Assembly (NCBI GenBank): GCA_038210415.1
Contig: JBBQWS010000001.1
Location: forward strand, 11,200-75,199
DNA: 64,000 nucleotides
Source: Actinomycetes bacterium
GTDB lineage: Bacteria; Actinomycetota; Actinomycetes; Prado026
Reading direction: 5' to 3'
Shown here: piece after piece, positions 4,225-61,868 of the stretch
Layout: every line of letters starts with the position of its first letter
Position numbering within the stretch: the stretch's first letter is position 1
Translations under genes and position numbers: made by a program
The notes under the pieces: generated by a model
What the model was told of the DNA's origin: nothing
Databases searched by the model: none
The model's input: the letters and a program-made list of their open reading frames with translations, nothing else

Positions 4225-5795
4225 GCACCGACCTTCCCGTGGTCACCGACATCCCGGTGGGCGACGCCGCTTCGACCCGCGCCGTCGAGGCGCTGATGCC
4301 GTACGACGAGGTGGTTCGTACCTTTGACCCCGTCCTCGGCCTGGAGGTCCACGTCGAGCTCGGCACCGCCACCAAGATGTTCTGCGGCTGCCCGACCGAG
4401 TTCGGTGCCGAGCCGAACACCCAGGTCTGCCCGACCTGCCTGGGACTGCCCGGCTCGCTCCCGGTCGTCAACGCGGTCGCCGTCGAGTCGGCCATCCGGA
4501 TCGGCCTCGCCCTCAACTGCGACATCGCCGAGTGGTGCCGGTTCGCGCGAAAGAACTACTTCTATCCGGACATGCCGAAGAACTACCAGGTGTCGCAGTA
4601 CGACGAGCCGATCGCCACCAACGGGTACCTCGACATCGAGGTGCCCACCCCAGACGGCCCGCGATCGTTCCGGATCGAGATCGAGCGTGCCCATATGGAG
4701 GAGGACACCGGCAAGACCTCCCACCTGGGCAGCGACACCGGACGCATCCTCGGCGCCGACTACTCCCTGGTCGACTACAACCGGGCGGGCATCCCGCTGA
4801 TCGAGGTGGTCACCAAGCCGATCGCTGGCATCGGTGAGCTCGCACCCGACGTCGCGAAGGCGTACGTCGGCGAGCTGCGCGCGCTGATGCAGGCCCTCGG
4901 CGTCTCCGACGCGCACATGCACCAAGGCTCGCTGCGCTGCGACGTGAACCTCTCGCTGCGGTCGTCCCCCGATGCCCCTCTCGGCACCCGGTCCGAGACC
5001 AAGAACGTCAACTCGCTGCGCTCGGTCGAGCGGGCCACCCGGTTCGAGATGCAGCGGCACGCCGCGCGGCTCGCTGCGGGGCTGTCGATCGTCCAGGAGA
5101 CCCGGCACTGGAGCGAGGCGCTGGGCAGCTCGAGCTCGGGTCGCAGCAAGGAGCAGGCTGAGGACTACCGCTACTTCCCCGAGCCCGACCTCGTGCCAGT
5201 CGCACCCTCCCGGGAGTGGGTGGCCGAACTCGCCGAGACGCTGCCCGAGCTGCCCTCGGCCCACCGTCGGCGCCTGCAGGCCGACTGGGGTCTGACCGAC
5301 CTCGAGCTGAGCGCTGCGGTGAACGCCGGCGCGTTGGGGCCGATCGAGGCGACGGTGGCTGACGGCGCCGACGCGGCAGCGGCCCGCAAGTGGTGGCTCG
5401 GCGAGCTGTCGCGGCTGGCGAACGAGCGGGGCGTCGATGTCGGCGACCTGCCGATCTTCCCGCGCGACGTCGCCCGGGTCATCGCGCTGGTCGACTCCGG
5501 CGCGCTGACCGACAAGCTGGCCCGACAGGTCGTCGAGGGGGTCCTCGCGGGTGCGGGCTCGCCCGACGAGGTCGTCGCCGCCCGCGGGTTCAAGGTCGTG
5601 AGCGACGACGGGCCGTTGCTGGCCGCCATCGATGCGGCTATCGCCGCGAACCCCGACGTGACGGCGAAGATCCTCGACGGCAAGGTGGCCGCGGCCGGAG
5701 CGATCATCGGTGCCGTGATGAAGGCCACCGGTGGCCAGGCCGACGCGGCCAAGGTCCGCGAGCTGCTCCTCAACAGGCTCGGCCTCACCCCCTAA
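4221..5795 (+). CDS. gatB: Asp/Glu-tRNA(Asn/Gln) amidotransferase subunit B
   Basis: 524 aa with [23 protein letters not shown] and a C-terminal GatB/YqeY region. GTGA overlap with gatA. Confidence 0.95.
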
Positions 5796-5856
5796 ACCCT
5801 TCCCTCCGGAACCCCTCGCCCCCCACCCGGACCCCCTCACCCGGACCCCCCCACCC

Positions 5857-5997
5857 CGCCACAAGGGTCCCCGGATGCCACTAGGCCGCAGTAGTGGACC
5901 ACCCATCGGCCCACCGTCGGCTCGAGTGGGTCGAGTAGCACCGAGCGATGAGTGCCGCGCGACTGCGGCCTAGTGGCATCAGGGGACCCTTGTGGCG
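5857..5997. repeat. Palindromic intergenic element, copy 1 (35-nt inverted arms, 71-nt spacer) between convergent gatB and ppc
   Basis: Left arm 5857-5891 is cgccacaagggtccc-cggat-gccactag-gccgcag. Right arm 5963-5997 is its reverse complement with 1 mismatch (34/35). A C-rich tract lies upstream (5797-5856) and a G-rich tract downstream (5998-6018). A second copy is at 27602-27720. Confidence 0.85.
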
Positions 5998-6018
5998 CAA
6001 CGGGGGGGAAGGGGTGGG

Positions 6019-8748
6019 TCAGCCGGTGTTGCGGAGGCCGGCGGCGATTCCGTTGACGGTGAGCAGCAGGGCCCGTTGCAGGTCCTCGTCCGGGTCGCCT
6101 TCGACCCGGAAACGTCGCAGCAGCGAACGCTGCAGGTCGTGTAACGGAGCGAGGTAGGCCTCGCGGACCTCCAGCGTCCGGCGCAGCCTCGGGTTGCCTC
6201 CGACGAGCTTCACCTCGCCGGTGAGCCGCAGGATCTCTCGAAGGGTGCGGTCGTTCTCGGCTTCGATGAGGGCGAACGGCTCACGAAGCGCCGGGGCCAC
6301 GAGCGACTCGACGTACCCCCGGGCGATCCGCAGATCGGTCTTCTGCAGGGTCATCTCGACGTTGGAGATGAACGTCCGGAAGAAGTGCCAGTCGCGGTAC
6401 ATCTCGGTGAGGGTGTCGTCGAGCCCCGCCGCGCGCGCCGCCGCCAGCCCGGCCCCGACGCCGTACCAGCCCGGGACGATCTGCCGTGACTGGGTCCAGC
6501 CGAACACCCACGGGATGGCTCGCAGACCCTCGATCCCGCCCCCGCTGTCCGGACGCCGGGACGGCCGGGACCCCAGCTGCAGGGCGCCGAGCTGGTCGGT
6601 GGGCGTCGACTGCAGGAAGTACTCGGGCAGGCTGGGGTGGTCGACCAGCTCGCGGTACGCCGTGAAGGCCGCCCCGGACAGCACGTCCATCGCCCCGGCG
6701 AAGACATCGAGAACGGCGTCGGCCTGCCGCGGCCGGGTGTGCAGCAGGGTCGCCTCGAGGGCGGCGCCGAGGGTGAGCTCGAGGTGCTCGCGGGCGAGGG
6801 CGGGCAGCGAGTACTTGTCCGAGATGACCTCACCCTGCTCCGTCACCTTGACGGCGCCGTCGAGCGTTCCCCAGGGCAGGGCCAGCAGCGCGTCGCGGGT
6901 GGGACCCCCGCCGCGCCCTACGCTGCCGCCCCGGCCGTGGAAGAAGACCAGCCGGACGCCGTGCCGGGCGGCGACCGTCCGGAGCCGCCCCTGGGCGCGG
7001 TGGATCTCCCACTGGGCCGTCGCGATGCCCGCCGCCTTGTTGGAGTCGCTGTAGCCGAGCATCACCTCCTGCTCGTCCCCGCGCAGCACCACGAGCTCGC
7101 GGTAGGCCGGCTGGCTGAGGAGGTCGTCGAGCACCTGGTCGGCCGCCCGCAGCTCCTCGACGGTCTCCAGCAGCGGTACGAACCCCAGCCGCGCTCGTCC
7201 CCCCGCGAGGTCGACCAGGCCGGCCTCCCGGGCGAGCACGACAGCGGCGAGCACGTCGTCGGCGCCCCGGGTCATCGACACGATGTACGTCTGGACACAG
7301 CTGGCCCCGTAGGTGTCCTGGGCATCGCGAATCGCCTCGAAGACCGCGTAGGTCGCCCGCTCGGTGCCGGTGAGCGGGGTGGGGTCTCCGGCGAGCGGAC
7401 GACGCGAGGCGAGCTCTCGGCCCAACAGGGCCAGCCGGTGCTCGCGCGGGAGGTCGAGGTAGCGCCACCCCTGCTCGCCGAGCCGGTCCACGAGCGCGCC
7501 TACGGCAGCGTGGTGCGCGTCGGCGTGCTCGCGGACGTCCATGGCGGCCAGGCCGAGTCCGAAGGCCGACAGGGTGCGCATCGCGCGCTCGACCGAGCCG
7601 TGGGCGATGTACGAGCCGCGGTTGGCGAGGAGGGAGTCGCGCAGCAGGGCCAAGTCGTCGAGCAGACCGTCGACGTCGGCGTAGTCGCGGCCGGGCTGCA
7701 CGGGCCGACCGGTGGCGATCCGGGCCCGGGTGCCGAGCAGCTTGCGCTGGATGCAGGTGGCCTTGAGCCGGTACGGCTCGTCGGCGTTCAGCCGCAGGTA
7801 ACGCGCATCGACCTCAGGGAGGGCGGCCAGGTCGGCGGCCAGCGAGTCGCGGAGCGCGGCGCTGACCGGGGCCAGCCGGGTCGACGACGAGAGCTCCTGG
7901 CGGAGCTGGTCGACGGCGTCCAGGGCCACCCGGATGGCGTGCTCGTGCTGAAGCTCGAGCACCTCGAGCGACACGGCTGCGGTGACGCCAGGGTTGCCGT
8001 CCCGGTCACCGCCGATCCAGGTGCCGAAGGCGAGCGGCCGGGCGGTCGGCGGCAGAGGGGCGCCCAGCGACCCAAGGTGGTCGGCGAGCTCGTCCAGCAC
8101 CTCGGGCACCGCGTCGCGGGCGAGCTGCTCGAGGTAGTAGATGGCGTTGCGGGCCTCGTCGAGGACGTCCGGCCGGGCCACTCGGAGGTCGTCGCTCTGC
8201 CACAACGACTCGATGACCTCGGCGAGACGGCGGTCGGTGCGGGCGCCGGGCTCTTCGTCGAGCAGCTCGGCGATCCGGCCGAGCTTGGCGAGGGTCGTCC
8301 GCCGGGCCGCCTCGGTGGGGTGGGCGGTGAAGACCGGACGGACAGCGAGCCGGCTGACCGCTGCCCGGATCTCGTCAGGGGCGACGTCGGCCGCCCGCAC
8401 CGCGTCGGCGGCCCGCGCCAGCCAGCTGCCCTGCTCGCGGCGGACGACCGCGAGCTCTCGGCCCCGGTGCACCTGCTCGCTCACGTTGGCCAGGTGGAAG
8501 TAGGTCGCGAAGGCTCGGGCCAGGCGGCTCGCCGTGGGCAGGTCGACCGCGCTGAGCAGTCGCTCCGCAGCGGCGGGGTCCTCGCGGCTGAGCAGCCGCA
8601 CGGACTCGACGAGAGCCAGCAGCTCGGGGCCTTCCTGGCGCACGAGGGTGTCGCCGAGGATCGAGCCGAGGTGTCGGATGTCGGCGCGCAGCCGTGCATC
8701 GTCGGCAGCGGAGTCGCCGAGGGAGTCGTGCACGGCTTCGGTGGTCAC
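6019..8748 (-). CDS. ppc: Phosphoenolpyruvate carboxylase
   Basis: C-terminus ...[10 protein letters not shown] is the PEPC hallmark; also TAHPTE and GYSDSNK motifs. I place the start at the GTG whose complement is 8746-8748 (VTTEAVHD...), with GGAAG upstream. The track ORF extends to 9345, but that extension overlaps the next gene. Confidence 0.9.
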
Positions 8749-51333: not shown

Positions 51334-54300
51334 GTGCACCTCAAGAGCCTCACCTTGCGTGGGTTCAAGTCGTTCGCGTCCTCGACGACGCTGCGCTTCG
51401 AGCCCGGCATCACCTGCGTCGTGGGACCCAACGGTTCGGGGAAGTCGAACGTCGTCGACGCCTTGGCCTGGGTGATGGGCGAGCAGGGGGCCAAGAGCCT
51501 GCGCGGCGGCAAGATGGAGGACGTCATCTTCGCGGGCACGGCCGGCCGGCCACCGCTGGGCCGGGCCGAGGTCGTGCTGAGCATCGACAACACCGACGGT
51601 GCGCTGCCGGTCGAGTTCGCCGAGGTCACGATCTCGCGGATCATGTTCCGCAACGGCGGTTCGGAGTACGCCATCAACGGCGACCCGTGCCGGCTGCTCG
51701 ACGTCCAGGAGCTGCTCTCGGACTCCGGCATCGGGCGCGAGATGCACGTCATCGTGGGCCAGGGCCAGCTCGACCAGGTGCTCTCCGCCACGCCTGAGGA
51801 CCGTAGGGGCTTCATCGAGGAGGCGGCCGGCGTCCTCAAGCACCGCAAGCGCAAGGAGAAGGCGCTCCGCAAGCTCGAGGCCATGCAGGCCAACCTGACC
51901 CGGATCACCGACCTGACGGGTGAGCTTCGGCGCCAGCTGAAGCCGCTCGGCAAGCAGGCGGAGGTCGCCCGCCGGGCGCAGGTGGTGCAGGCCGATCTGC
52001 GGGACGCCCGGTTGCGGCTGCTCGCCGACGACCTGGTGACCATGCGCTCCACGCTGCAGCAGGAGGTCGCCGACGAGACCGCGCTGCGCGAGCGCCGGGC
52101 CCGGGTCGAGGCGGCCTCCGTCGGCGCACGGCAGCGGGAGGCCGAGCTCGAGGCCGACGTCGCCGAACACTCGCCGCGGCTGGCCGCAGCGCAGGAGGTC
52201 TGGTACCGCCTGGCCGGGGTGCGCGAGCGGCTCCGTGCCACTCAGGGGCTGGCCGGCCAACGGCTCCGGATCCTCGCCACCGAGCCGGACGACGACCGCA
52301 CCGGAAGCGATCCGGACGATCTCGACGCCGCAGCCGCATCGGCCCGGGCCGAGGAGCAGTCCCTCATCGCCCAGGTCGAGGCCGACTCGGTCCGGCTTGC
52401 GGCGGCGGTGAGCGCGCGGACCAGGGCGGAAGCCGCCCTCGTGGCCGAGGAGCGCCGAGTCACCTCCGCCGAGCGGGCCGCAGCGGACCGGCGCGAAGGC
52501 CTCGCGCGACTCAGCGGCCAGGTGGCTGCCGCGCGTTCGCGGCTGGAGACCCGTACCGCCGAGATCGACCGGCTGTCGACGACGCTGGCCGAGGCGAGGA
52601 GCCGGGCGGGCAACGCACAGCGCGACTTCACCGCGCTCGAGTCGCAGGTCGCCGGCCTCGACGAGGGCGAGGTCGACCTCGACTCCGAGCACGCGGCTGC
52701 GGCAGCCGCTTTCGACGATGCCGAGCAGTCGGTCACCCGGTTGCGTGAGGCCGAGCGTGAGGCCGAGCGCGAGCGCGCAGGACTGATCGCCCGCAAGGAA
52801 GCCCTCGAGATGGGGCTGGCCCGCAAGGACGGGGCCGGGGCAGTGCTCGCGGCGGGCGACCGGCTGTCGGGTGTGCTCGGCACGGTCGCCGCGCTTCTCA
52901 CCATCCGGCCCGGCTACGAGGCTGCGGTGGCGGCCGCGCTCGGCTCGGCCGCCGACGCCGTCGCGGTCGACGGCCTCGACTCCGCGGTCGGTGCGCTGCG
53001 CTTGCTCAAGGCCGACGATGCTGGCCGTGCACCGCTCGTGGTGGCGGGCGGACCCGCCACCACGGCCACGGCGAGCCTCGCCGCTTCGATCACCCTGCCG
53101 GCGCAGGCGGTGCCGGCCGCCGACCTGGTCGACGCCCCTTCGGGCCTGCGGCCGGGGCTGGCCCGACTGCTCGGGCGCACCGTCGTGGTCGACGGCGTCG
53201 ATGACGCTCGCGCACTGGTCGCGAGGCACCCCGACCTCGTGGCCGTGACCCGGCAGGGCGACGTGCTCGGGGTCGACTTCGCTCATGGCGGCTCGGCCTC
53301 GCTCCCGTCGTTGCTCGAGGTGCAAGCGGCCGTCGACGACGCGGGCGCTCGGCTCGAGGCGGCCGCGGCTCAGGCCGAACGGCTCCGCACGGATCTCGTG
53401 CGGGTGACCGCGCAGCGCCAGCGCGCCTCGGAGCGGGTCGAGGCCGCCCTGGTCCGACTGCACGAGTCGGACGCCCGGATGGCCGCCGTGGCGGAGCAGC
53501 TCGGACAGCTCGGGGCTGCGGCTCGCGCAGCCGTCGGGGAGGCCGAGCGCACCGCGGCAGCGCTGACCGTGGCCGAGGCGGCCCGGGCGGACGACGAGAA
53601 CAGCCTGACCGAGCTCGACACGCGCCTGCGGGCGGCCGTGGCCTCCCCGGTTGACGACGAGCCCACGGTCGACGACCGAGACGCCCTGGCGGTCGCTGCC
53701 TCGAACGCCCGGCAGAGCGAGGTCGAGGTCCGGCTGTCCGTCCGCACCGGCGAGGAGCGGGCCCGTGCCCTCGGCGGCCGAGCCGAGTCGCTCGAGCGCG
53801 CCGCCAGCGACGAGCGGTCCGCTCGCGAGCGGGCAGCGGCCAGGCGTGAACGGCGGATCCGCGAGCTCGCCGTAGCCGGGGCCGTCGCCAGGGGCGCCGA
53901 GCACGCTCTCCTGCGGATCGAAGGTTCGCTCATCGCCGCGGCCGGCGAGCGTTCCGCGGCGGAGCTGGCTCGCACCGAGGTCGACGCCGAGCTGCTGTCG
54001 GTACGGGCCCAGGCCCGCGAGCTGGCCGGCGAGCTGGACCAGCTGACCAGCTCGGTGCATCGCGACGAGGTCGCCCGGGCCGAGCAACGGCTGCGGATCG
54101 AGGCCCTGGAGACCAAGGTTCTCGACGACTACGGCGTCGAGGGTGACGTACTAGTCGATGAGTACGGTCCGGACCAGCTCGTGCCTGCGTCGATCCCGGT
54201 CCCCGGGGCCGAGGAGGCTGCGGCCGAGGAGCCGGTGCCGTACGTACGAGCCGAGCAGGACAAGCGGGCCCGCGCCGCCGACCGCGACCTCGCGCTGCTG

Positions 54301-54906
54301 GGCCGGGTCAACCCGCTGGCGCTGGAGGAGTTCGCTGCGCTCGAGGAACGGCACCAGTTCCTCACCGAGCAGCTCGAGGACCTCAAGAAGACGCGTCGCG
54401 ACCTGCTCGACATCATCAAGGACGTCGACGAGCGCGTGGAGCAGGTCTTCACGGCCGCCTACCACGACACCGCCCGCGAGTTCGAAGGCGTCTTCGCGCG
54501 GCTGTTCCCCGGCGGTGAGGGACGGCTGGTGCTCACCGACCCGTCGGACATGCTCAACACGGGCATCGAGGTCGAGGCGCGCCCACCGGGCAAGAAGGTC
54601 AAGCGCCTGTCACTGCTCTCGGGCGGGGAGCGGTCACTCGTCGCAGTGGCCCTGCTGGTGGCGATCTTCAAGGCCCGGCCGAGCCCGTTCTACGTGATGG
54701 ACGAGGTCGAGGCGGCGCTCGACGACACCAACCTGGGCCGGTTGCTGGGCCTTCTGGAAGAGCTGCGCGAGTCGTCCCAGCTCATCGTCATCACGCACCA
54801 GAAACGCACCATGGAGATCGCCGACGCCCTCTACGGCGTCTCCATGCGCGGCGACGGCGTCACTACGGTCATCAGCCAGCGGCTGCGCGAGGAGCAGCCC
54901 GCCTGA
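51334..54906 (+). CDS. smc: Chromosome segregation protein SMC
   Basis: 1190 aa with FKSF...GPNGSGKSN (Walker A), long coiled coils, a hinge, LSGGE and a Walker B near the C-terminus. Confidence 0.96.
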   Translation: MHLKSLTLRGFKSFASSTTLRFEPGITCVVGPNGSGKSNVVDALAWVMGEQGAKSLRGGKMEDVIFAGTAGRPPLGRAEVVLSIDNTDGALPVEFAEVTISRIMFRNGGSEYAINGDPCRLLDVQELLSDSGIGREMHVIVGQGQLDQVLSATPEDRRGFIEEAAGVLKHRKRKEKALRKLEAMQANLTRITDLTGELRRQLKPLGKQAEVARRAQVVQADLRDARLRLLADDLVTMRSTLQQEVADETALRERRARVEAASVGARQREAELEADVAEHSPRLAAAQEVWYRLAGVRERLRATQGLAGQRLRILATEPDDDRTGSDPDDLDAAAASARAEEQSLIAQVEADSVRLAAAVSARTRAEAALVAEERRVTSAERAAADRREGLARLSGQVAAARSRLETRTAEIDRLSTTLAEARSRAGNAQRDFTALESQVAGLDEGEVDLDSEHAAAAAAFDDAEQSVTRLREAEREAERERAGLIARKEALEMGLARKDGAGAVLAAGDRLSGVLGTVAALLTIRPGYEAAVAAALGSAADAVAVDGLDSAVGALRLLKADDAGRAPLVVAGGPATTATASLAASITLPAQAVPAADLVDAPSGLRPGLARLLGRTVVVDGVDDARALVARHPDLVAVTRQGDVLGVDFAHGGSASLPSLLEVQAAVDDAGARLEAAAAQAERLRTDLVRVTAQRQRASERVEAALVRLHESDARMAAVAEQLGQLGAAARAAVGEAERTAAALTVAEAARADDENSLTELDTRLRAAVASPVDDEPTVDDRDALAVAASNARQSEVEVRLSVRTGEERARALGGRAESLERAASDERSARERAAARRERRIRELAVAGAVARGAEHALLRIEGSLIAAAGERSAAELARTEVDAELLSVRAQARELAGELDQLTSSVHRDEVARAEQRLRIEALETKVLDDYGVEGDVLVDEYGPDQLVPASIPVPGAEEAAAEEPVPYVRAEQDKRARAADRDLALLGRVNPLALEEFAALEERHQFLTEQLEDLKKTRRDLLDIIKDVDERVEQVFTAAYHDTAREFEGVFARLFPGGEGRLVLTDPSDMLNTGIEVEARPPGKKVKRLSLLSGGERSLVAVALLVAIFKARPSPFYVMDEVEAALDDTNLGRLLGLLEELRESSQLIVITHQKRTMEIADALYGVSMRGDGVTTVISQRLREEQPA

Positions 54907-55011
54907 CCTGCGGTGACAAGGTTCGACCCGGTCGCGGCTAACGCCCGGATAACCACCTTTCGCACGGTCTGCGCGGGCTGCACAGTGGAGTTCTCACCTA
55001 CAGGAGGACCC

Positions 55012-55491
55012 ATGAGGCGTTCCCGCCGAATCGCACTATCGACCGCAGTGACCACCGGCGTGCTCGGTGTCGCAGGGGTGGCCGTGGCGGTCGTCCCGTC
55101 AGCCGTCCTGGCCGCGTCGCCGTCGTCGACCACTCCGTCGACGAGCACCGACGAGTCGGCCGCGCAGGAGGATGCGCTCCGGGTGGCCCTCGGCCAGCTC
55201 GACGGTCGCACGCTCTCGCTCGAGAAGGACCTGACCGCGGCGCAGCGCCAGCTGGCCGCCGCTCGGGCGGCCGCTGCGGCCGCCGAAGCAGCAGCCCAAG
55301 CCGGCGGCAACTCGCAGCGTCCTGCCTCGAAGCCGCAGCAGGCCCGCAGCCAGGCCCGCAAGGTCATCTACGTCCACGCGCCGGCGCCCAAGGTAACCAA
55401 GGTGACCAAGCCGCCGACGCACACCACCACGGGCGCCAGCGGGGCGAGCGGCGGCGACGACAGCGGCGAGGGCGGCGGCACCGATGACTGA
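55012..55491 (+). CDS. Small exported protein A (159 aa) with a Tat-like signal, a coiled coil and the C-terminal PPTHTTTGASGA motif
   Basis: AGGAGG at 55002-07. N-terminus MRRSRRIALSTAVTTGVLGVAGVAVAVVPSAVLAAS. The tail KPPTHTTTGASGASGG contains the [ST]GA[ST] core. Confidence 0.7.
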   Translation: MRRSRRIALSTAVTTGVLGVAGVAVAVVPSAVLAASPSSTTPSTSTDESAAQEDALRVALGQLDGRTLSLEKDLTAAQRQLAAARAAAAAAEAAAQAGGNSQRPASKPQQARSQARKVIYVHAPAPKVTKVTKPPTHTTTGASGASGGDDSGEGGGTDD

Positions 55492-55966
55492 GCTTCGCGG
55501 GCGTACCGCCCGGTGGTCCGCGGCAGCGCTGGCGGCCCCGGTGGTGGCGTCGCTGTTCGCCGGCACCACCGCCTGGGCCGTCCACCACGACCCGCTGCAC
55601 CCGGACGGCGCGGCATCGGCGACTGCGGCCACCCCGGCCAAGCTCGTCGCGCCGTCGGCGGACCCCACGCTGGTTGCGCTTCGCGCCGCACTCCTGGCCA
55701 ACGCCAAGAAGGTCGACGCGCTGAGCAAGCAGGTCGCAGGCGTGCGGGCCCAGGCCGCAGCCATGGCGAAGGGCACTTCGTCGGCCCGGCGCAGCACCTA
55801 CAGCGGTTCCGGTAGCTCATACCGTTCGTCCGGCTCCTCGAACTCGTCCAGCTCGAGCCGGTCGAGCGGCGGCGGGAACCAGTCGCCGATCGTGGTGACC
55901 ATCCCGGCTCCGGCCGCTCCGCCGCCCACCCACACCACGACAGGTGCGTCCGGGGCCGTCCGGTGA
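55484..55966 (+). CDS. Small exported protein B (160 aa), paralogue of A, ending in PPTHTTTGASGAVR
   Basis: N-terminal hydrophobic segment with AWA. Same central helix and Ser-rich linker layout as A. The tail motif is identical to A. 8-nt overlap with A and GTGA overlap with apbE. Confidence 0.7.
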   Translation: MTELRGRTARWSAAALAAPVVASLFAGTTAWAVHHDPLHPDGAASATAATPAKLVAPSADPTLVALRAALLANAKKVDALSKQVAGVRAQAAAMAKGTSSARRSTYSGSGSSYRSSGSSNSSSSSRSSGGGNQSPIVVTIPAPAAPPPTHTTTGASGAVR

Positions 55967-56991
55967 CCGGGATCCCGACGACCGGCGCCGCGTCGTCGAC
56001 GCCGGTCGTCGGGATCCTTCGCACGGTCACGCCGGATGTCGTCGCCAGCTTTCGGGCGATGGCCTCCGAGATCAACGTGCGGGTCGTCCGCCCGCGGCCC
56101 GGCGCTGCGGAGGCGGTCTGCCTCGCGGAGGACGTCTTCCACCGGGTCGAGAGGGCCTGCACGAGGTTCGACCCCGGCTCGCCGCTCATGCGGGCCAACG
56201 CGGCGCCGGGGCAGTGGCACCAGGTGCCTTCGGAGCTGTACGAGACCCTGATCGAGGCTGCCGCCGCCCATGCGATCACCGCCGGAGTGTTCGACCCACG
56301 GGTCCTTCGGGTCCTGGAGTCGTTCGGCTACGACCGTTCGCTGCCGTTCGGCGACGAGCCGGTCGAGTTGTCAGGGGCTTTGGCGCCGGGCCGGCACCGT
56401 CGCTCTGCCGCGGGTGGGCGAGCGGGTTGGGATCCGCACTTCGACGAGCCCTCTCGGTCGGTCTGGCTCGGCCCCGAGCCGGTCGACCTGGGGGGGATCG
56501 GCAAGGGGATCGCCGTCCGTTGGGCCACCGAGGCCCTGACCGGCGCGGGGGAGTCGACGCTGGTCGAGGCCGGTGGAGACTGCGCGGCCGTGGGCTCCGG
56601 ACCCGACGGCGACGGTTGGAAAGTCGGCGTGCAGGACCCCCGTGAGGGGGACGACCCCCTCGCGGTGCTCTCGCTCACCGACCGGGCCTGCGCGACGTCC
56701 TCGATCCGCCTTCGCCGTTGGCGGGCCGGCGGGCGCCAGGTGCACCACCTGATCGACCCGCGCACCGGTGAACCCGGCGGCGAGGGCCTGGCTGCGGTCA
56801 CCGTGGTGCACGACGACCCGGCCCTCGCCGAGGTCTGGAGCAAGTCGTTGTTCCTCGCCGGGCTGGACGGCATCGCCGACCGCGCGGCCGAACGCGGACT
56901 CGCCGCCCTGTGGGTGGCGCCCGACGGTTCGCTCGACCTGAGCGACTCGATGCGATCGATGGTCATCTGGAGGTACGACGGTGTCAGCTAA
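55963..56991 (+). CDS. apbE: FAD:protein FMN transferase (ApbE family)
   Basis: 342 aa. FRAMASEINVRV, FDPGSPLMRAN, AGVFDPRV, DLGGIGKGIAV and HHLIDPRTG follow the ApbE pattern. I see no obvious signal peptide or lipobox. Confidence 0.8.
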   Translation: MTGIPTTGAASSTPVVGILRTVTPDVVASFRAMASEINVRVVRPRPGAAEAVCLAEDVFHRVERACTRFDPGSPLMRANAAPGQWHQVPSELYETLIEAAAAHAITAGVFDPRVLRVLESFGYDRSLPFGDEPVELSGALAPGRHRRSAAGGRAGWDPHFDEPSRSVWLGPEPVDLGGIGKGIAVRWATEALTGAGESTLVEAGGDCAAVGSGPDGDGWKVGVQDPREGDDPLAVLSLTDRACATSSIRLRRWRAGGRQVHHLIDPRTGEPGGEGLAAVTVVHDDPALAEVWSKSLFLAGLDGIADRAAERGLAALWVAPDGSLDLSDSMRSMVIWRYDGVS

Positions 56992-57736
56992 CCGGGTCTC
57001 GACCCACCGAGAGTCGACGCATCGGGCGGCGGCGATCCCGGTCGACGACCGCCGCACCGTCGTCGAGCGGTTGGTCGCGATCGGCCGGGGCGTACTGCTC
57101 ACCCTGGGCGTCGCAGTCAGCACTGCGGTCACCGCGTGGATGATCGGCCGGGGCGTGCTGGCCGTGGCCGGTAACAAGCAGGCACCCTGGATCCTCGGTC
57201 GGGCCGCCGGCGTGACGTCCTACCTGCTCCTGGTCGGCCTCGTCGGGTTCGGACTGGTGCTCTCGCACCCGTGGCGAAGCCGGGTCACCTGGCCCAGCAC
57301 CGCCACCCGGATCCGGATCCACGTGAGCCTGGCGGTCTTCACCCTCGCGTTCCTGGTCCTGCACATCGTCGTGCTGGCCACCGACTCGTACGCGGGCGTG
57401 GGCCTGCGCGGTGCGTTGCTGCCGATGGGCGCTTCGTACCGTCCGGTCCCGGTCACGCTCGGGGTCATCGGCGCGTACGCGGGCCTGCTCGCGGGCGTCA
57501 CCGCCGCGATGGCTGGCCGCGTCACCGCGCGCATCTGGTGGCCGATCCACAAGGTGGCGGCGGTGTCGTTGGTGCTGGTGTGGGTGCACGGTCTGCTCGC
57601 CGGAAGTGACAGCCCTGCGCTGCTCGCGCTGTACGTCGCGACGGGGCTGGCCGTCGCTGCCTTGGCCGTGAGCAGGTACGCAGCGAGGACGCCGGCCGAC
57701 CGGGTCGCCGAGCTCACCGAAGGAGTCGACCGATGA
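56981..57736 (+). CDS. Ferric-reductase-like (FRD/MsrQ-like) 6-TM membrane protein, putative bis-haem b
   Basis: Six hydrophobic helices. Intramembrane His pairs at IHVSLAVFTLAFLVLH and IHKVAAVSLVLVWVH. Confidence 0.75.
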   Translation: MSANRVSTHRESTHRAAAIPVDDRRTVVERLVAIGRGVLLTLGVAVSTAVTAWMIGRGVLAVAGNKQAPWILGRAAGVTSYLLLVGLVGFGLVLSHPWRSRVTWPSTATRIRIHVSLAVFTLAFLVLHIVVLATDSYAGVGLRGALLPMGASYRPVPVTLGVIGAYAGLLAGVTAAMAGRVTARIWWPIHKVAAVSLVLVWVHGLLAGSDSPALLALYVATGLAVAALAVSRYAARTPADRVAELTEGVDR

Positions 57737-59073
57737 CCGGGGTGCCCTACCTCGTTCGGGCGACGACCCCGCCGACGGCACCAGCCGTCGGCGGACTCGA
57801 CGGGCGGCTGCTCGGCAGCCCGGTCACCTTCGACCTGCGGACGCGCGAGCACCCCGTGGGCGGCGTGCGGCACGACCTGGCCGACCACCTGGCGGCATTC
57901 GGGTCGCGCCCGTCCGCCGTCGGTCACCACGGCGACGAGCTGCTCGAGATCTTGCAGGACCTCGCGCTGACCGGTCGCGGCGGCGGGCACTTCCCGGTGG
58001 CGACGAAGTGGCGGGCCGCGCTGGGCGCAGGGGGCGGTGGCACGGTCGTGGCGAACGGCGCCGAGGGCGAACCGGCGAGCGCGAAGGACGCCACGTTGCT
58101 GCAGCTCCGGCCGCACCTGGTGCTCGACGGGCTGGCGCTGGCCGCCGAGACGATCGGTGCGGACGACGCGGTCGTCTGGCTGCACGAGGGCGATGTCGCG
58201 ACCCACCGTTCAGTCGCGCTGGCGCTGGTGGAGCGGCGCGCCGCGGGCGCGAGCGGCACACCCGTCCGCATCGCGACCGGCCCGGACCGGTACCTCTCCG
58301 GCGAGGCCAGCGCGGTCGTACGCGCCCTCGGCGGTGGCCCGGCTCTGCCCTACCTCGAACGCCGCCCTGCCGCGATCGAGGGCATCGGCGGGCTCCCCAC
58401 CGTCGTGCACAACGCCGAGACCATGGCGCGGGTCGCTCTGGCCGCCCGCACCGGGTCGGACGACGGCGACGCCGTCACCGGTGGGACGCTGCTCACCGTC
58501 GTGGGGCCGGACCGTCGGGTCGTGCTCGAGGCCGACCGTGACCAGACGATCGGCGCGATCATCAGCGAGGTGCTCGGTGGGTCCGAGCGCGTGCGACCAC
58601 CGGCGGCCGTCCTGGTCGGGGGTTTCGGCGGCAGCTGGTTGCCCTGGTCGACGCTCGCACCGCTCGCACCAACCGAACCCGCCTTGCGGGGCGTCGGCGC
58701 ATCGCTCGGAGCCGGGCTGCTGATCCCGTTGGCTTCCGGCGGCTGCGGTCTGTCCGAGACCGCCGCTGTGCTGCGTTACCTGGCTGCGTCGTCGGCCCGG
58801 CAGTGCGGGCCGTGCCTGTTCGGCCTGCCCGCCATGGACGAGCTCGTCACCTCGATCGCCGAGGGGTCGGCGAAGCGCTCCGACGTGCGCCAGCTGGAGC
58901 GGTTCATGGCCCAGATCGATCGTCGCGGCGCGTGCCACCACCCGGACGGTGCGCTGCGCATGGTCCGATCGGCGTTCGCCGTGTTCGCGGACGACCTGCA
59001 GCGACACCTGAAGGACGGCCCGTGCCCGGGGGCGCTGCACCAGCCGTCCATCCCAGTCCCGGAGGTGCACTGA
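57733..59073 (+). CDS. NuoF-like NAD(P)H-oxidising flavo/iron-sulfur protein
   Basis: GRGGGHFPVATKW, ANGAEGEPASAKD, YLSGEASAV and PTVVHNAET (51-kDa subunit fold), an SLBB-like segment, and a C-terminal Fe-S region QCGPC...GACHHPDG...GPCPG. Confidence 0.8.
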   Translation: MTGVPYLVRATTPPTAPAVGGLDGRLLGSPVTFDLRTREHPVGGVRHDLADHLAAFGSRPSAVGHHGDELLEILQDLALTGRGGGHFPVATKWRAALGAGGGGTVVANGAEGEPASAKDATLLQLRPHLVLDGLALAAETIGADDAVVWLHEGDVATHRSVALALVERRAAGASGTPVRIATGPDRYLSGEASAVVRALGGGPALPYLERRPAAIEGIGGLPTVVHNAETMARVALAARTGSDDGDAVTGGTLLTVVGPDRRVVLEADRDQTIGAIISEVLGGSERVRPPAAVLVGGFGGSWLPWSTLAPLAPTEPALRGVGASLGAGLLIPLASGGCGLSETAAVLRYLAASSARQCGPCLFGLPAMDELVTSIAEGSAKRSDVRQLERFMAQIDRRGACHHPDGALRMVRSAFAVFADDLQRHLKDGPCPGALHQPSIPVPEVH

Positions 59074-59074
59074 G

Positions 59075-59329
59075 ATGATCCGCGTTCCGCTGGGACCGGC
59101 CGCCCGTACGACGACCGCCCCTGCACCGGCTGCAGCGCCGCCGAGGCTACGGGTGGACCCTGTCCGGTGTGACGGCATCGGGATCTGCGCCCACCTCGCG
59201 CCGCAGATCGTAACCGTCGACTCCTGGGGCTACCCGATCATCGCTTCCGCGCCGCTGGACCGCCGGTCCCGGCGGCGGGCGGAGTCTGCCGTGTCGGCCT
59301 GCCCGCGCAAGGCGCTCTTCATCGCCTAG
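59075..59329 (+). CDS. Small single-cluster ferredoxin
   Basis: 84 aa with VDPVRCDGIGICAHLAPQIV...SACPRKAL (CxxxGxC...CP pattern). The start lies 1 nt after the upstream stop. Confidence 0.75.
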   Translation: MIRVPLGPAARTTTAPAPAAAPPRLRVDPVRCDGIGICAHLAPQIVTVDSWGYPIIASAPLDRRSRRRAESAVSACPRKALFIA

Positions 59330-59353
59330 CGCGGGCAGTCGCCTCGCGCTCGA

Positions 59354-60580
59354 CTACCCGACGAGGGCCGGTCGCATCGTCGTGCCGACCTCGGCGAGGT
59401 GCCGGCGGATCGCCAGCGCCGCCGCAGCGCCCTCGCCCGCAGCCGAGGCGGCCTGCTTCGTCGAGCCGGAGCGGACGTCGCCGGCCGCGAACAGGCCCTT
59501 CTGTGAGGTCTGCAGCCCGACGTCGGTGACCACGAACCCTGCGAGGTCCACGTCGACGAGGTGAGAGACCAGCTCTGCGTTCGGCGTCAGGCCGATGAAA
59601 ACGAAGACGCCATCCGGGTGGAGCTCGGTGCGTTCGCCGGTCACGGTGTTCTGGACGGTGACTCCGGAGAGCTTTCCCTCGCCGGAGAACTCGACCGGCG
59701 CCGAATGTGTCAGCACTGACATCTGCGGGTGCGCCTCGATCTTGTCGACCACGACCTTCGACGCGGAGAGCGCGGCGTCGCGGGTCACGAGGGTGACAGT
59801 GCGAGCGAACTTGGTGAGGAAGATGCCCTCCTCGCCGGCGGAGTTGCCGCCGCCGACGACGAGGACGTCGCGGTCGCGGTAGAACGCGCCGTCGCACGTC
59901 GCGCAGAAGTGGATGCCGGCACCGATGAAGTCGGCCTCGCCGGGGACGTCGAGCCGGCGATACGTCGAACCGGTCGCCACCAGGACGGCGGCAGCCCGGT
60001 AGACCTCTCCGTCACCGGTGGCGACGTCCCAGGCGTCGCCTTCGGGTTCGATGCCGGTGACCTGCTGGGCCGAGAGGATCTCGACTCCGAACCGCTCCGC
60101 CTGGGCGCGTAGGCGGGCCGCGAATTCATCGCCGGTGACGCCTTCGGGGAAACCGGGAAAGTTGTCGAGCCGCTCGGTGACCGCAGCCTGGCCGCCGACC
60201 CCGCCGCGTTCGATCACCAGGGTGTCGATCCCCTCGCGCGCGGCGTACAGCGCAGCAGTCAGACCGGTGGGCCCGGACCCGACGACGATCAGGTCGTAGT
60301 AGTGCTGCCGCGCAATCGTCTGTAGCCCGAGCTGGGCTGCGAGCTCGGCGTTGGAGGGCTCCACGAGGACGTCGCCGCCGGGGAAGACGATGGTGGGGAT
60401 GATCGTCTTGCCGTCGTTGTGCGCCTCGACCACGGCGCGGCCTTCTTCGTCACCGTCGACGTCGACGAAGCGGTACTTCACTCGTTGTTCCGCGAAGAAC
60501 TGCTTGGCCCGCTTGCAGTCGCCGCACCAAACGGTGCCGTACATGACGATCTCGGCCGACGTTTCGTGGTCCTGGGGCAC
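59354..60580 (-). CDS. Glutaredoxin/NrdH-like domain fused to a thioredoxin-reductase-type flavoprotein
   Basis: N-terminus: VMYGTVWCGDCKRAKQFF. Then YDLIVVGSGPTGLTAALYAARE, the redox centre HFCATCDG and GGGNSAGEEG. The HRRxxxR NADPH motif is degenerate (VTLVTRDAALSAS). Confidence 0.8.
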   Translation of the reverse strand: MPQDHETSAEIVMYGTVWCGDCKRAKQFFAEQRVKYRFVDVDGDEEGRAVVEAHNDGKTIIPTIVFPGGDVLVEPSNAELAAQLGLQTIARQHYYDLIVVGSGPTGLTAALYAAREGIDTLVIERGGVGGQAAVTERLDNFPGFPEGVTGDEFAARLRAQAERFGVEILSAQQVTGIEPEGDAWDVATGDGEVYRAAAVLVATGSTYRRLDVPGEADFIGAGIHFCATCDGAFYRDRDVLVVGGGNSAGEEGIFLTKFARTVTLVTRDAALSASKVVVDKIEAHPQMSVLTHSAPVEFSGEGKLSGVTVQNTVTGERTELHPDGVFVFIGLTPNAELVSHLVDVDLAGFVVTDVGLQTSQKGLFAAGDVRSGSTKQAASAAGEGAAAALAIRRHLAEVGTTMRPALVG

Positions 60581-60701: not shown

Positions 60702-61868
60702 GTGGATCACGCACTTGTCGCCGTCCTTGCCGTCCTGCTCGTGCTTGTCGTGGGCGCCGGAGGGCTGTTCCTGGCGCGCCGCGGGCGAGCTGGCGGTACC
60801 GCCGTCGCCGAGCGCCCGAAGCCGGGCATCGACTACGCGCCGGGGGTGGGTGACGACGCGGAGGTGCCGCGGGACACCCCGACCCGCCTGGTCGAGCAGC
60901 TCGACCTGCCCGCGGGACCCGCGACTGCGGTGCTGGACATACCCGCCCCGTCAGCCGGTCGGCTTGGCCGGCTGCGTGGTCGCCTTGCCCGCTCGCAGTC
61001 GACCCTGGGCTTGGGGCTGCTCGCCATCTTGTCGCGCGACAAGCTCGACGACCAGACCTGGCTGGAGGTGGAGGAGACGCTGCTCGTCTCCGATCTCGGC
61101 GTCGCACCGACGCAGGCATTGGTCGACCGGCTGCGGACCCGGGCTCGCGCGGATCACACCGGCGACGCGGCGGCCGTGCGCGCGATGCTGCGTGAGGAGC
61201 TGCTCGCGCTGGTCGGACCCGATCTCGACCGGTCTTTGTCGACCGAGCGAACCGCCGACGGGCGGCCCGCCGTCGTCCTCGTGGTCGGGGTCAACGGCAC
61301 CGGGAAGACGACAACGACCGGCAAGCTCGCCCGGGTGCTGGTCGCGGACGACCGCGACGTCCTGCTCGGGGCGGCGGACACGTTCCGGGCCGCGGCCGCC
61401 GAGCAGCTGACCACGTGGGGCGACCGGGTGGGCGTGCCGACTGTTCGCGGAGCCGAGGGTGCGGACCCCGCCAGTGTCGCCTTCCAGGCGGTGCAGGCGG
61501 GGATCGACGCCGAGGTCGACGTGGTGCTGATCGACACGGCCGGTCGGCTGCACACCAAGACCGGACTCATGGACGAGCTCGGCAAGGTCAAGCGCGTCAT
61601 CGAGAAGCTTGCCCCGGTCTCCGAGGTGCTGCTCGTGCTCGATGCCACCACCGGGCAGAACGGGCTGCAGCAGGCCCGGGTCTTTGCCGAGGTCGTCGAC
61701 GTCACCGGCATCGTGCTGACCAAGCTGGACGGTACGGCGAAGGGTGGCATCGTCGTCGCGGTGCAGCGCGAGCTCGGTGTGCCCGTCAAGCTGATCGGCC
61801 TCGGAGAGGGCGCTGACGACCTCGCGCCGTTCGAGCCCGAAGCTTTCGTCGACGCGCTGCTCGGCTGA
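60702..61868 (+). CDS. ftsY: Signal recognition particle receptor FtsY
   Basis: N-terminal TM segment, then an NG domain with GVNGTGKTTTTGKLA, DTAGRL and TKLDGTAKGG. Confidence 0.95.
   Translation: MDHALVAVLAVLLVLVVGAGGLFLARRGRAGGTAVAERPKPGIDYAPGVGDDAEVPRDTPTRLVEQLDLPAGPATAVLDIPAPSAGRLGRLRGRLARSQSTLGLGLLAILSRDKLDDQTWLEVEETLLVSDLGVAPTQALVDRLRTRARADHTGDAAAVRAMLREELLALVGPDLDRSLSTERTADGRPAVVLVVGVNGTGKTTTTGKLARVLVADDRDVLLGAADTFRAAAAEQLTTWGDRVGVPTVRGAEGADPASVAFQAVQAGIDAEVDVVLIDTAGRLHTKTGLMDELGKVKRVIEKLAPVSEVLLVLDATTGQNGLQQARVFAEVVDVTGIVLTKLDGTAKGGIVVAVQRELGVPVKLIGLGEGADDLAPFEPEAFVDALLG

Follow-up and report, generated by a model that had tools for sequence, protein, structure and literature searches.

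A conserved six-gene operon of Actinomycetes with a candidate flavin-tagged protein pair and an ApbE lacking a signal peptide

Here, we analysed a 64,000-nt stretch of DNA from an Actinomycetes bacterium of the Prado026 lineage (assembly GCA_038210415.1, contig JBBQWS010000001.1, positions 11,200 to 75,199 of the forward strand; hereafter, the window), with a focus on six genes that follow each other on its plus strand between positions 55012 and 59329. The first two encode small proteins. Protein A (55012-55491; 159 aa) consists of a predicted N-in signal or anchor, a helix, a linker, a candidate flavinylation tag and an acidic tail, and protein B (55484-55966; 160 aa) begins with a conserved hydrophobic segment, continues through a single helix and a disordered, Ser/Gly-rich linker, and has its tag at the C-terminus. 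They are followed by an ApbE-family FAD:protein FMN transferase without signal peptide or lipobox (55963-56991), a six-helix membrane protein that its homologues and His pattern place with the MsrQ/NOX-like ferric-reductase-domain (FRD) proteins (56981-57736), a NuoF-like soluble flavo-iron-sulfur protein with an FMN/NAD(H) domain and a C-terminal Fe-S region (57733-59073), and a single-cluster ferredoxin of 84 aa (59075-59329). We consider it somewhat better than an even chance (a probability of roughly 0.55) that these genes specify an MsrQ-like, flavinylation-associated transmembrane electron-export module in which A and B are the flavin-tagged acceptors.

The six genes are one operon. An AGGAGG Shine-Dalgarno sequence lies 6 nt upstream of the ATG of gene A, and the successive junctions are an 8-nt overlap (A/B), a GTGA overlap (B/ApbE), an 11-nt overlap (ApbE/FRD-like), an ATGA overlap (FRD-like/NuoF-like) and a 1-nt gap (NuoF-like/ferredoxin). 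The G+C content at third codon positions is 0.85-0.90 in all six frames (0.86 in gene A). Exact products of five of the six genes (B, ApbE, FRD-like, NuoF-like and ferredoxin) are on record in a public protein collection, which means that an independent gene caller picked the same starts. An earlier note, made from the letters of the window and a list of its open reading frames, had described six same-strand, operon-like frames with these boundaries and junctions, and both the translations and the DNA bear this out; the translations contain IHVSLAVFTLAFLVLH, IHKVAAVSLVLVWVH, GRGGGHFPVATKW, ANGAEGEPASAKD, PTVVHNAET and SRRIAL.

To follow the operon through other bacteria, an alignment of the membrane protein was scanned against one genome per species, which yielded 161 matching genomes, of which 80 loci were kept; the neighbour counts given here cover the loci whose contig extends far enough. 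All carriers found are Actinomycetes. They comprise metagenome-assembled genomes (MAGs) of Nanopelagicales, Kineosporiaceae, Sporichthyaceae, Pseudonocardiales and Mycobacteriales, as well as Cellulomonadaceae, among them the cultured Pengzhenrongella phosphoraccumulans M0-14 and Actinotalea sp. M2MS4P-6. On contigs that are long enough, the order A-B-ApbE-FRD-NuoF-Fd is retained in ~80 species-level genomes, an arrangement far beyond chance. ApbE is the adjacent upstream neighbour of the FRD gene in 72 of the 74 loci, a small tag protein (A/B) lies upstream in 64 of 65, and the NuoF-like gene and the ferredoxin gene lie downstream in 74 of 74 and 70 of 70 loci, respectively. The surroundings, in contrast, vary from genome to genome, with the unit found beside a protein O-mannosyltransferase and a sugar ABC transporter, a NiFe hydrogenase, or CopC/CopD. 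Because the same order recurs amid differing neighbourhoods, the six genes behave as one selected unit, and the differing neighbourhoods suggest that they move as a block. The neighbourhood comparison across Actinomycetota that the earlier note had proposed thus finds the cluster kept as a unit.

A and B have a common peptide at their C-termini that links them to ApbE, [H/Q/N]-T-[T/S]-T-G-A-S. In A, it reads H137-T-T-T-G-A-S-G-A-S146 (55420-55449, plus strand) and contains two overlapping [ST]GA[ST] cores, T140-G-A-S143 and S143-G-A-S146, with S143 and S146 as the predicted FMN acceptors; in B, it reads H150-T-T-T-G-A-S156 (55931-55951, plus strand), with the core T153-G-A-S156 and the predicted acceptor S156, and ends four residues before the stop codon. 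Across the families, the tag follows the consensus P-[P/A]-x-[Q/H/N]-T-[T/S]-T-G-A-S-G in B, after which 0-5 residues precede the stop, and P-x-x-H-T-[T/S]-T-G-A-S-G-S in A, where it is followed by the acidic tail. TGAS occurs within the last 12 residues of 50 of the 69 distinct B proteins from the genomes, compared to 0.7% in shuffled sequences, and 38 of 49 A homologues carry the motif among their last 45 residues, compared to 3.8% in shuffles. Among 136 independent database representatives of the B family, 95 carry TGAS at the end and a further 24 carry TGGS. Moreover, the A and B tags of the window (PPTHTTTGASGA) use different synonymous codons, which indicates that selection acts on the peptide. 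The ApbE, FRD-like, NuoF-like and ferredoxin proteins were searched for a second flavinylation target, and the motif is present in none of the four.

The sequence [S/T]GA[S/T] is the core of the ApbE flavinylation motif (PMC11334425; PMC12052999), and a seven-residue motif, D-x-x-[ST]-G-A-[ST], suffices for ApbE when placed at a protein terminus, with replacement of its Asp by Ala having only a minor effect (PMC12052999). Taken together, these two properties make the A/B tag credible as an ApbE substrate. The earlier note had put forward A and B as plausible substrates, a proposal that the conserved terminal TGAS motif strengthens.

Neither A nor B has a Pfam or NCBIfam match, and a Pfam domain was found in 0 of 21 B homologues. 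None of the known flavinylated domains (FMN_bind, NqrB/RnfD, DUF2271, DUF3570, Flavodoxin_4 and FMN_red) surrounds the motif in either protein according to Pfam and NCBIfam, and, as had been claimed for A and B, there is no recognisable FMN_bind domain in any of the six proteins. The B family profile comprises 186 clusters at 50% identity, nearly all of 130-190 aa and matching end to end. In the AlphaFold2 (AF2) model, B is mostly disordered, tail included, and only the helix at residues 61-97 is confident. The two proteins share one architecture, i.e. a positive N-terminus, a hydrophobic segment, a helix of ~35 residues, a low-complexity Ser/Gly/Pro/Ala linker of variable length, a Pro-rich stretch and the tag. 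An hhalign comparison matched A to B over the helix with a probability of 94.9% (E=4e-8), so that the two are probably distant paralogues, in agreement with what the first inspection had suggested.

Both proteins look exported or anchored, with their tags outside the membrane. In A, hydropathy marks a signal or anchor at residues ~7-34, directly after MRRSRR (55030-55113, plus strand); its best 19-aa Kyte-Doolittle (KD) window reaches 2.35, and the family value is at least 1.6 in 43 of 50 members. The flanks of this segment carry charges of +4 (N-terminal) against 0 (C-terminal) in all 50 family members. In B, residues 11-32 (RWSAAALAAPVVASLFAGTTAWA; 55514-55579, plus strand), which precede a conserved H-x-P, may be a signal peptide or a single-pass anchor. 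Here, the KD value is 1.61 (family median 1.49), and the N-flank is more positive than the C-flank in 69 of 70 members. A positive N-flank (net charge of +3 to +4 in A and B), a neutral C-flank (0) and a hydrophobic segment between them predict an N-in/C-out orientation and, thus, tags outside. The conservation of the B segment is unusually high for a signal peptide and, together with the H-x-P motif, suggests that B stays with the membrane protein as an integral partner and is not freely secreted.

Beyond its tag, A continues into an acidic tail (GGDDSGEGGGTDD; 55450-55488, plus strand), recognized by the tail composition of the family, in which the last 25 residues have a mean net charge of -7 and 41 of 50 members end in DD. 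Some A homologues have tails rich in His, Asp and Glu, and such a tail behind the tag suggests metal binding and hence metal reduction, perhaps of Fe(III). This idea agrees with the iron-reductase role suggested for some MsrQ-like systems (PMC8238504). In some genomes (L001 at 5077-5595, L027, L061 and L072), A lacks the TGAS tag and has a tail of 60-70 residues that are nearly all Asp, Glu or His (e.g. DDHGDDHDDEDRDDDSDDEDD), which looks like metal-binding sequence; B ends exactly in TGAS in the same loci.

The ApbE assignment, made in the earlier note together with those of the NuoF-like protein and the ferredoxin, is supported by a match to PF02424 (E=7.7e-49, 167 bits against a cut-off of 25.6) that spans profile positions 2-265 of 266, and, among solved structures, TM1553 and several FAD:protein FMN transferases are most closely related. 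The catalytic residues of ApbE are Ser241, His257 and Asp285 in Vibrio cholerae numbering (PMC12052999). The motifs DLGGIGKG, ATSS, VHHxxDP and EVWSK are conserved in the operon family, Cellulomonadaceae-type loci included, with ATSS and VHHxxDP present in 56 members; this conservation of active-site motifs indicates that the enzyme is under selection. The position aligned to the Asp of TM1553 (tADALST) is a Glu within the conserved EVWSK. We predict that the operon ApbE performs the Mg-dependent reaction of the family, the transfer of FMN from FAD to Ser/Thr.

ApbE proteins typically, though not obligatorily, carry a lipoprotein signal at the N-terminus, and the operon enzyme appears to lack one. 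Neither a Cys nor a hydrophobic stretch precedes the domain (best KD window 1.10). In L043 and L084, the domain begins only 18 in-frame codons after the upstream stop (29 in L070 and 40 in L040), distances that in several homologues are too short to accommodate a signal peptide. The absence of a visible signal peptide, a caveat of the earlier note, holds family-wide. Likewise, the NuoF-like protein and the ferredoxin have no hydrophobic N-terminus, and all three proteins look soluble. Several apparent B-ApbE fusions of 462-582 aa (L004/L006 at 5500-7011 and L078 at 4443-5831; proteins P0150, 582 aa, and P0237) were rejected as frameshift or read-through artefacts. The stretches that join the two parts are translated out of frame and rich in Arg, in MAGs from long reads, and L004 additionally has a broken NuoF-like gene; a real fusion of this kind would have placed ApbE outside.

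The FRD-like protein has 872 homologues, many with precomputed PF01794 hits, and 13 of the 24 aligned homologues match PF01794 (best 3.8e-7). Its AF2 model (pLDDT 73) consists of six long helices at residues 23-61, 68-94, 107-134, 156-178, 186-207 and 212-235. In all 24 sequences, four His residues are invariant. These putative haem ligands form one pair in helix 3 (His114/His128, codons 57320-22 and 57362-64) and another in helix 5 (His190/His203, codons 57548-50 and 57587-89), both on the plus strand and spaced x13 and x12, respectively. Human NOX2 has the same spacing of 13 and 12 intervening residues at His101/115 and His209/222. We infer from this pattern that the protein may bind two b-type haems.

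The NuoF-like protein matches PF01512 (6e-27, 94.8 bits) and PF10589 (6e-17, 61.7 bits), and its best PDB matches are 51-kDa-type NADH dehydrogenase subunits, HoxF and HydB (E of 1e-36 to 1e-28). Five Cys residues, C337, C358, C361, C401 and C431, are conserved in the family. In 74 of 74 loci, the neighbours of its gene are the FRD-like and ferredoxin genes, not nuoE/nuoG and the rest of nuo. The protein would be expected to use NAD(P)H. The ferredoxin matches Fer4_15 (E=2e-9), and 59 aligned sequences conserve three Cys in the arrangement C-x5-C...C-P.

Combined, these features support a scheme in which the NuoF-like protein would oxidise cytoplasmic NAD(P)H at its own FMN and pass electrons to its own Fe-S cluster, from which they would travel singly to the small single-cluster ferredoxin. 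The ferredoxin would dock at the cytoplasmic face of the six-helix membrane protein, and electrons would cross the membrane from the inner b-haem (H114/H190) to the outer one (H128/H203). Outside, A and B, held by their N-termini, would accept electrons on an FMN that the operon's ApbE would have linked by a phosphoester to the last Ser of the tag. Being at the extreme C-terminus, the tags would be the last part of each protein to be exported and could be flavinylated in the cytoplasm before post-translational Sec export. The flavin tips would then reduce an external acceptor, perhaps Fe(III) bound at the Asp/Glu/His-rich tail of A. The gene order, the domain identities, their conservation, the tag with its statistics and the lack of a signal on ApbE come from the sequences; flavinylation itself, haem binding, the use of NAD(P)H, the direction of flow, the compartment in which the tags are modified and the final acceptor are inferred.

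Several observations weigh against the electron-export reading. At the level of the membrane protein, the sequence from the window does not match PF01794 at E<=1 and so stays below any Pfam threshold, a Foldseek search of its model against PDB gave no match at E<=0.001, and phmmer and profile searches against PDB sequences returned nothing relevant. With the PDB searches empty, membership in the FRD group rests on the homologues and the His pattern; the ferric-reductase-like assignment made in the earlier note is thereby weakened, since the PF01794 profile fails on this protein itself and the assignment is recovered through homologues and the invariant His pairs. Of the six family assignments in that note, four hold, and those of ApbE, the NuoF-like protein and the ferredoxin are solid. 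The NuoF-like protein scores 134 bits against the NuoF equivalog TIGR01959, far below the cut-off of 558.65, as it does with the other NuoF models, and the first Cys of the canonical C-x2-C-x2-C of cluster N3 aligns to an Ala. Among the conserved neighbours of the loci, there is no universal seventh gene that would name a terminal acceptor; the non-universal ones include histidine kinase/response regulator pairs (~21 loci), an S8 protease (15) and an ECF sigma factor (11). The signal-peptide and topology calls for A, B and ApbE are based on hydropathy and charge alone. As for the tags, the presence of FMN on A and B is deduced from sequence, and the canonical Asp three residues before the first Ser/Thr is replaced by Gln, His or Asn in B and by His in A. 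In addition, in Cellulomonadaceae-type loci, the Gly of the tag is changed to Lys or Gln, or the motif is gone from A, with ApbE intact. B ends there in TT[K/Q][A/G/S/P]S instead of TTGAS (L062, L065, L074, L075, L077, L080 and L082), and the upstream small protein retains only the acidic tail, so that either the enzyme takes a tag without Gly or the system differs in these bacteria. The pattern is not uniform, since L052 (P. phosphoraccumulans M0-14) keeps TGAS, its B ending in TGASK, whereas the B of Actinotalea sp. M2MS4P-6 (L082) has the deviant tag TKGSG. Finally, the predictions put ApbE on one side of the membrane and its presumed substrates on the other, and we found no precedent for the Sec export of a pre-flavinylated tail.

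An ApbE devoid of an export signal would most likely modify the tags inside the cell, prior to Sec export. SecYEG accepts sizeable side-chain adducts. In its most specific form, the electron-export reading holds that A and B are natural, domain-less 'flavin-tag' proteins, that the signal-less ApbE flavinylates their disordered tails in the cytoplasm, that Sec threads these tails out, and that the membrane-tethered flavins shuttle electrons from the outer FRD haem to metal ions on the acidic, His-rich tail of A; we put this version forward tentatively, as possible rather than probable. If true, it would dispense with the need to export FAD, and it would describe a new kind of flavoprotein without a flavin-binding fold, along with a new route to extracytosolic flavoproteins. 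The main rival reading is that the tails stay inside and all flavin chemistry is cytoplasmic. The N-terminal segment would then be a peripheral or complex-binding helix, the tails would act between the NuoF-like protein/ferredoxin and the inner haem, and the outer haem would reduce its substrate directly, as in NOX or fungal Fre. This would remove the compartment paradox, as the ApbE family has no signal peptide, and it fits a B segment that is unusually conserved and only moderately hydrophobic (median KD 1.49); moreover, a cytosolic ApbE with cytosolic substrates has a precedent (PMC12052999). However, the segment of A is strongly hydrophobic, with KD of at least 1.6 in 43 of 50 members, both families combine N-in/C-out flank charges with subsequent small-x-small sites, and a cytoplasmic A/B carrier would be redundant with the ferredoxin. 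On balance, we regard this rival as unlikely. Another reading is that A receives its flavin in the cytoplasm and then leaves in folded form by the Tat route, directed there by SRRIAL and possibly with partners in tow. The A of the window indeed starts with MRRSRRIAL, and several close relatives have RRTRRIA. The earlier note had advanced this Tat-like route, which the family does not sustain. Tat substrates carry a nearly invariant twin arginine within an S/T-R-R-x-F-L-K-like motif. In A, only R3 and R6 are conserved and position 5 is Arg in 18 of 50 members; N-termini containing RR make up 21 of 50 in the A family and 25 of 70 in the B family, and a loosely defined Tat pattern is matched by 12 of 50 A proteins and 2 of 70 B proteins. 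In addition, A and B are predicted to be mostly disordered and would offer no fold for Tat to protect; Tat export thus appears improbable.

It may also be that the TGAS tail is not flavinylated at all, with A and B being envelope or linker proteins and ApbE either serving a substrate elsewhere or acting as an FAD pyrophosphatase like Treponema Ftp. Thr, Gly, Ala and Ser are frequent in high-GC proteomes, the motif lacks its Asp, the Cellulomonadaceae-type tags have lost Gly yet ApbE is kept, and the conserved Asp285 position of ApbE is Glu in the operon family. Nevertheless, the motif is fixed at the C-terminus in two separate families at frequencies of 70-90%, against less than 4% by chance, A/B genes lie directly upstream of ApbE (64 of 65 loci), and the motif occurs in no other protein of the unit, which together leave us with little confidence in this explanation. 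Electrons might also flow inward, from a reductant oxidised outside the cell to ferredoxin and NAD(P)+; nothing speaks directly for this, although the components are reversible in principle. Electron transfer from FMN or b-haems to NAD+ is uphill without coupling, and a coupling subunit is absent from the unit, so that we judge this direction very improbable. We thus retain outward electron transfer to flavin-tagged A and B as the preferred reading.

The operon resembles several known systems in part. E. coli MsrQ (YedZ) and the soluble flavin reductase Fre form a two-component NOX-like system, reportedly described by Juillan-Binard in 2017 (as cited in PMC8238504). As proposed for the operon, a soluble reductase in the cytosol feeds a distinct haem protein of the FRD type in the membrane, which delivers electrons to an extracytosolic partner. 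The system differs in that Fre is the donor and the molybdoenzyme MsrP the acceptor, whereas the operon has a NuoF-like protein with a ferredoxin and a flavin-tagged tail, with no msrP in the unit. The closest likeness is to the MsrQ-like clusters of Actinobacteria (PMC8238504), in which ApbE lies beside a PF01794-type two-haem membrane protein (in the operon, a putative one), likewise in an actinobacterial lineage, and for which a cytosolic NAD(P)H-linked donor, a NuoF-like partner and extracytosolic flavinylated acceptors were proposed. Meheust et al. 2021 reported a NuoF-like (PF10589) protein in 31 flavinylation clusters of the MsrQ-like type and proposed that NAD(P)H is their donor (PMC8238504). 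The earlier view that a NuoF-like donor lies outside any such system was thus overstated, although these clusters are uncharacterised. In the literature searched, this was the only source in which a NuoF-like protein appears together with ApbE. MsrQ-like clusters typically have an FMN_bind substrate, and their membrane protein is usually fused to an FNR-like PF00175 domain, whereas the operon has domain-less tagged tails and a separate ferredoxin that is always present; its membrane protein, unlike theirs, is at the edge of PF01794 detection. The operational definition of Meheust et al. calls for a gene for ApbE, FMN_bind, DUF3570 or DUF2271 with a PF01794 gene within five genes, and their filter demands a signal peptide in a target gene (PMC8238504). 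The sole target gene of the operon is an ApbE without such a signal, so that the cluster would fail this filter.

With respect to the tags, the nearest parallels are the engineered flavin-tag, a short terminal peptide of the D-x-x-[ST]-G-A-[ST] type (Tong, Fraaije et al. 2021; reviewed in PMC12052999), and ApbE-associated FMN_red proteins, which bear the motif on unstructured C-terminal extensions (PMC11334425). In both, as proposed for A and B, a short terminal peptide outside a dedicated FMN_bind fold suffices for ApbE. The flavin-tag, however, is synthetic and the FMN_red tail folds back onto a flavin-binding domain, whereas A and B have no globular domain and carry His, Gln or Asn in place of Asp. 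Listeria extracellular electron transfer (FmnB/PplA/Ndh2/EetAB) and NQR/RNF similarly involve ApbE-type flavinylation of extracytosolic carriers, with enzyme and substrates clustered, but ApbE/FmnB is exported there, FAD is supplied outside and the substrates have FMN_bind or NqrB/RnfD folds. These systems cross the membrane by way of quinone/EetAB or the Nqr/Rnf core, and the operon would do so through an FRD dihaem protein. The cytoplasmic ApbE of Klebsiella pneumoniae (PMC12052999) also has no signal peptide and acts in the cytoplasm; its substrate, however, is a soluble cytoplasmic fumarate reductase with FMN_bind, whereas the candidate substrates of the operon carry export signals. No description of A- or B-like proteins was found in the literature searched. 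This type of system has been noted before and is uncharacterised, and the domain-less tagged proteins and the signal-less ApbE appear to be new. The most interesting content of the locus, in our estimation, is the putatively flavin-tagged, disordered, exported pair with a cytoplasmic ApbE, rather than the NuoF-like donor.

In the window, the operon lies between smc (51334-54906) and a convergent minus-strand gene for a glutaredoxin-thioredoxin reductase (Grx-TrxR) fusion (59354-60580), beyond which lies ftsY (60702-61868). The base composition of the region bears no island signature. An Rfam scan of 54500-59700 found neither an FMN riboswitch nor another element, and promoter and terminator scans of the region were empty, which is little informative at 73% GC. 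Upstream of gene A, a direct repeat, GCTAAC-N5-GATAAC, is located at 54937-54954 (plus strand), 58-75 nt 5' of the start codon and with a spacing of 11 bp. Altogether, 13 of 49 loci carry this repeat before gene A at an unchanging distance, against a background of 0.003 per 200 nt, the other carriers being L003-L005, L007, L009, L010, L014, L019, L026, L039, L044 and L061. In another clade (L018, L020, L038, L047, L049, L064, L066 and others), TTGGAC occurs instead, repeated two or three times at spacings of 11 and 21 nt. These 11-bp-phased direct repeats resemble sites of OmpR/PhoB-type response regulators, and an OmpR-family regulator and its kinase adjoin the six-gene unit in ~21 loci. An IdeR-type iron box was not found upstream of A, where the best match had five mismatches and occurred in one locus. 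The Grx-TrxR gene encodes a 408-aa protein in which a glutaredoxin/mycoredoxin-like domain (PF00462; TIGR02200, 65 bits) is fused to a thioredoxin-reductase-like flavoenzyme (TIGR01292, 327.6 bits, slightly below the 343.45-bit cut-off). Its stop codon lies 25 nt past that of the ferredoxin gene, and it is not kept beside the six-gene unit in other genomes.

To our knowledge, flavinylation by ApbE is the main known way in which bacteria put flavins outside the cytoplasm, and we know of no accepted natural ApbE substrate whose motif is not within a folded domain, with the enzyme being normally exported. The family described here is a conserved natural case in which a bare terminal tag on a disordered protein is the apparent substrate and the transferase apparently stays inside. 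If confirmed, it would widen the definition of an ApbE substrate and call for motif-only searches, since domain-based surveys would have missed the A/B family, and it would raise the testable question of whether a flavinylated tail can cross the membrane. The cultured carriers P. phosphoraccumulans M0-14 and Actinotalea sp. M2MS4P-6 make this question experimentally approachable. Confirmation would also establish a compact conduit from NAD(P)H to the outside in widespread freshwater and soil Actinomycetes (Nanopelagicales, Kineosporiaceae and Cellulomonadaceae among them), and would be relevant to how Gram-positive bacteria reduce iron and carry out extracellular electron transfer.

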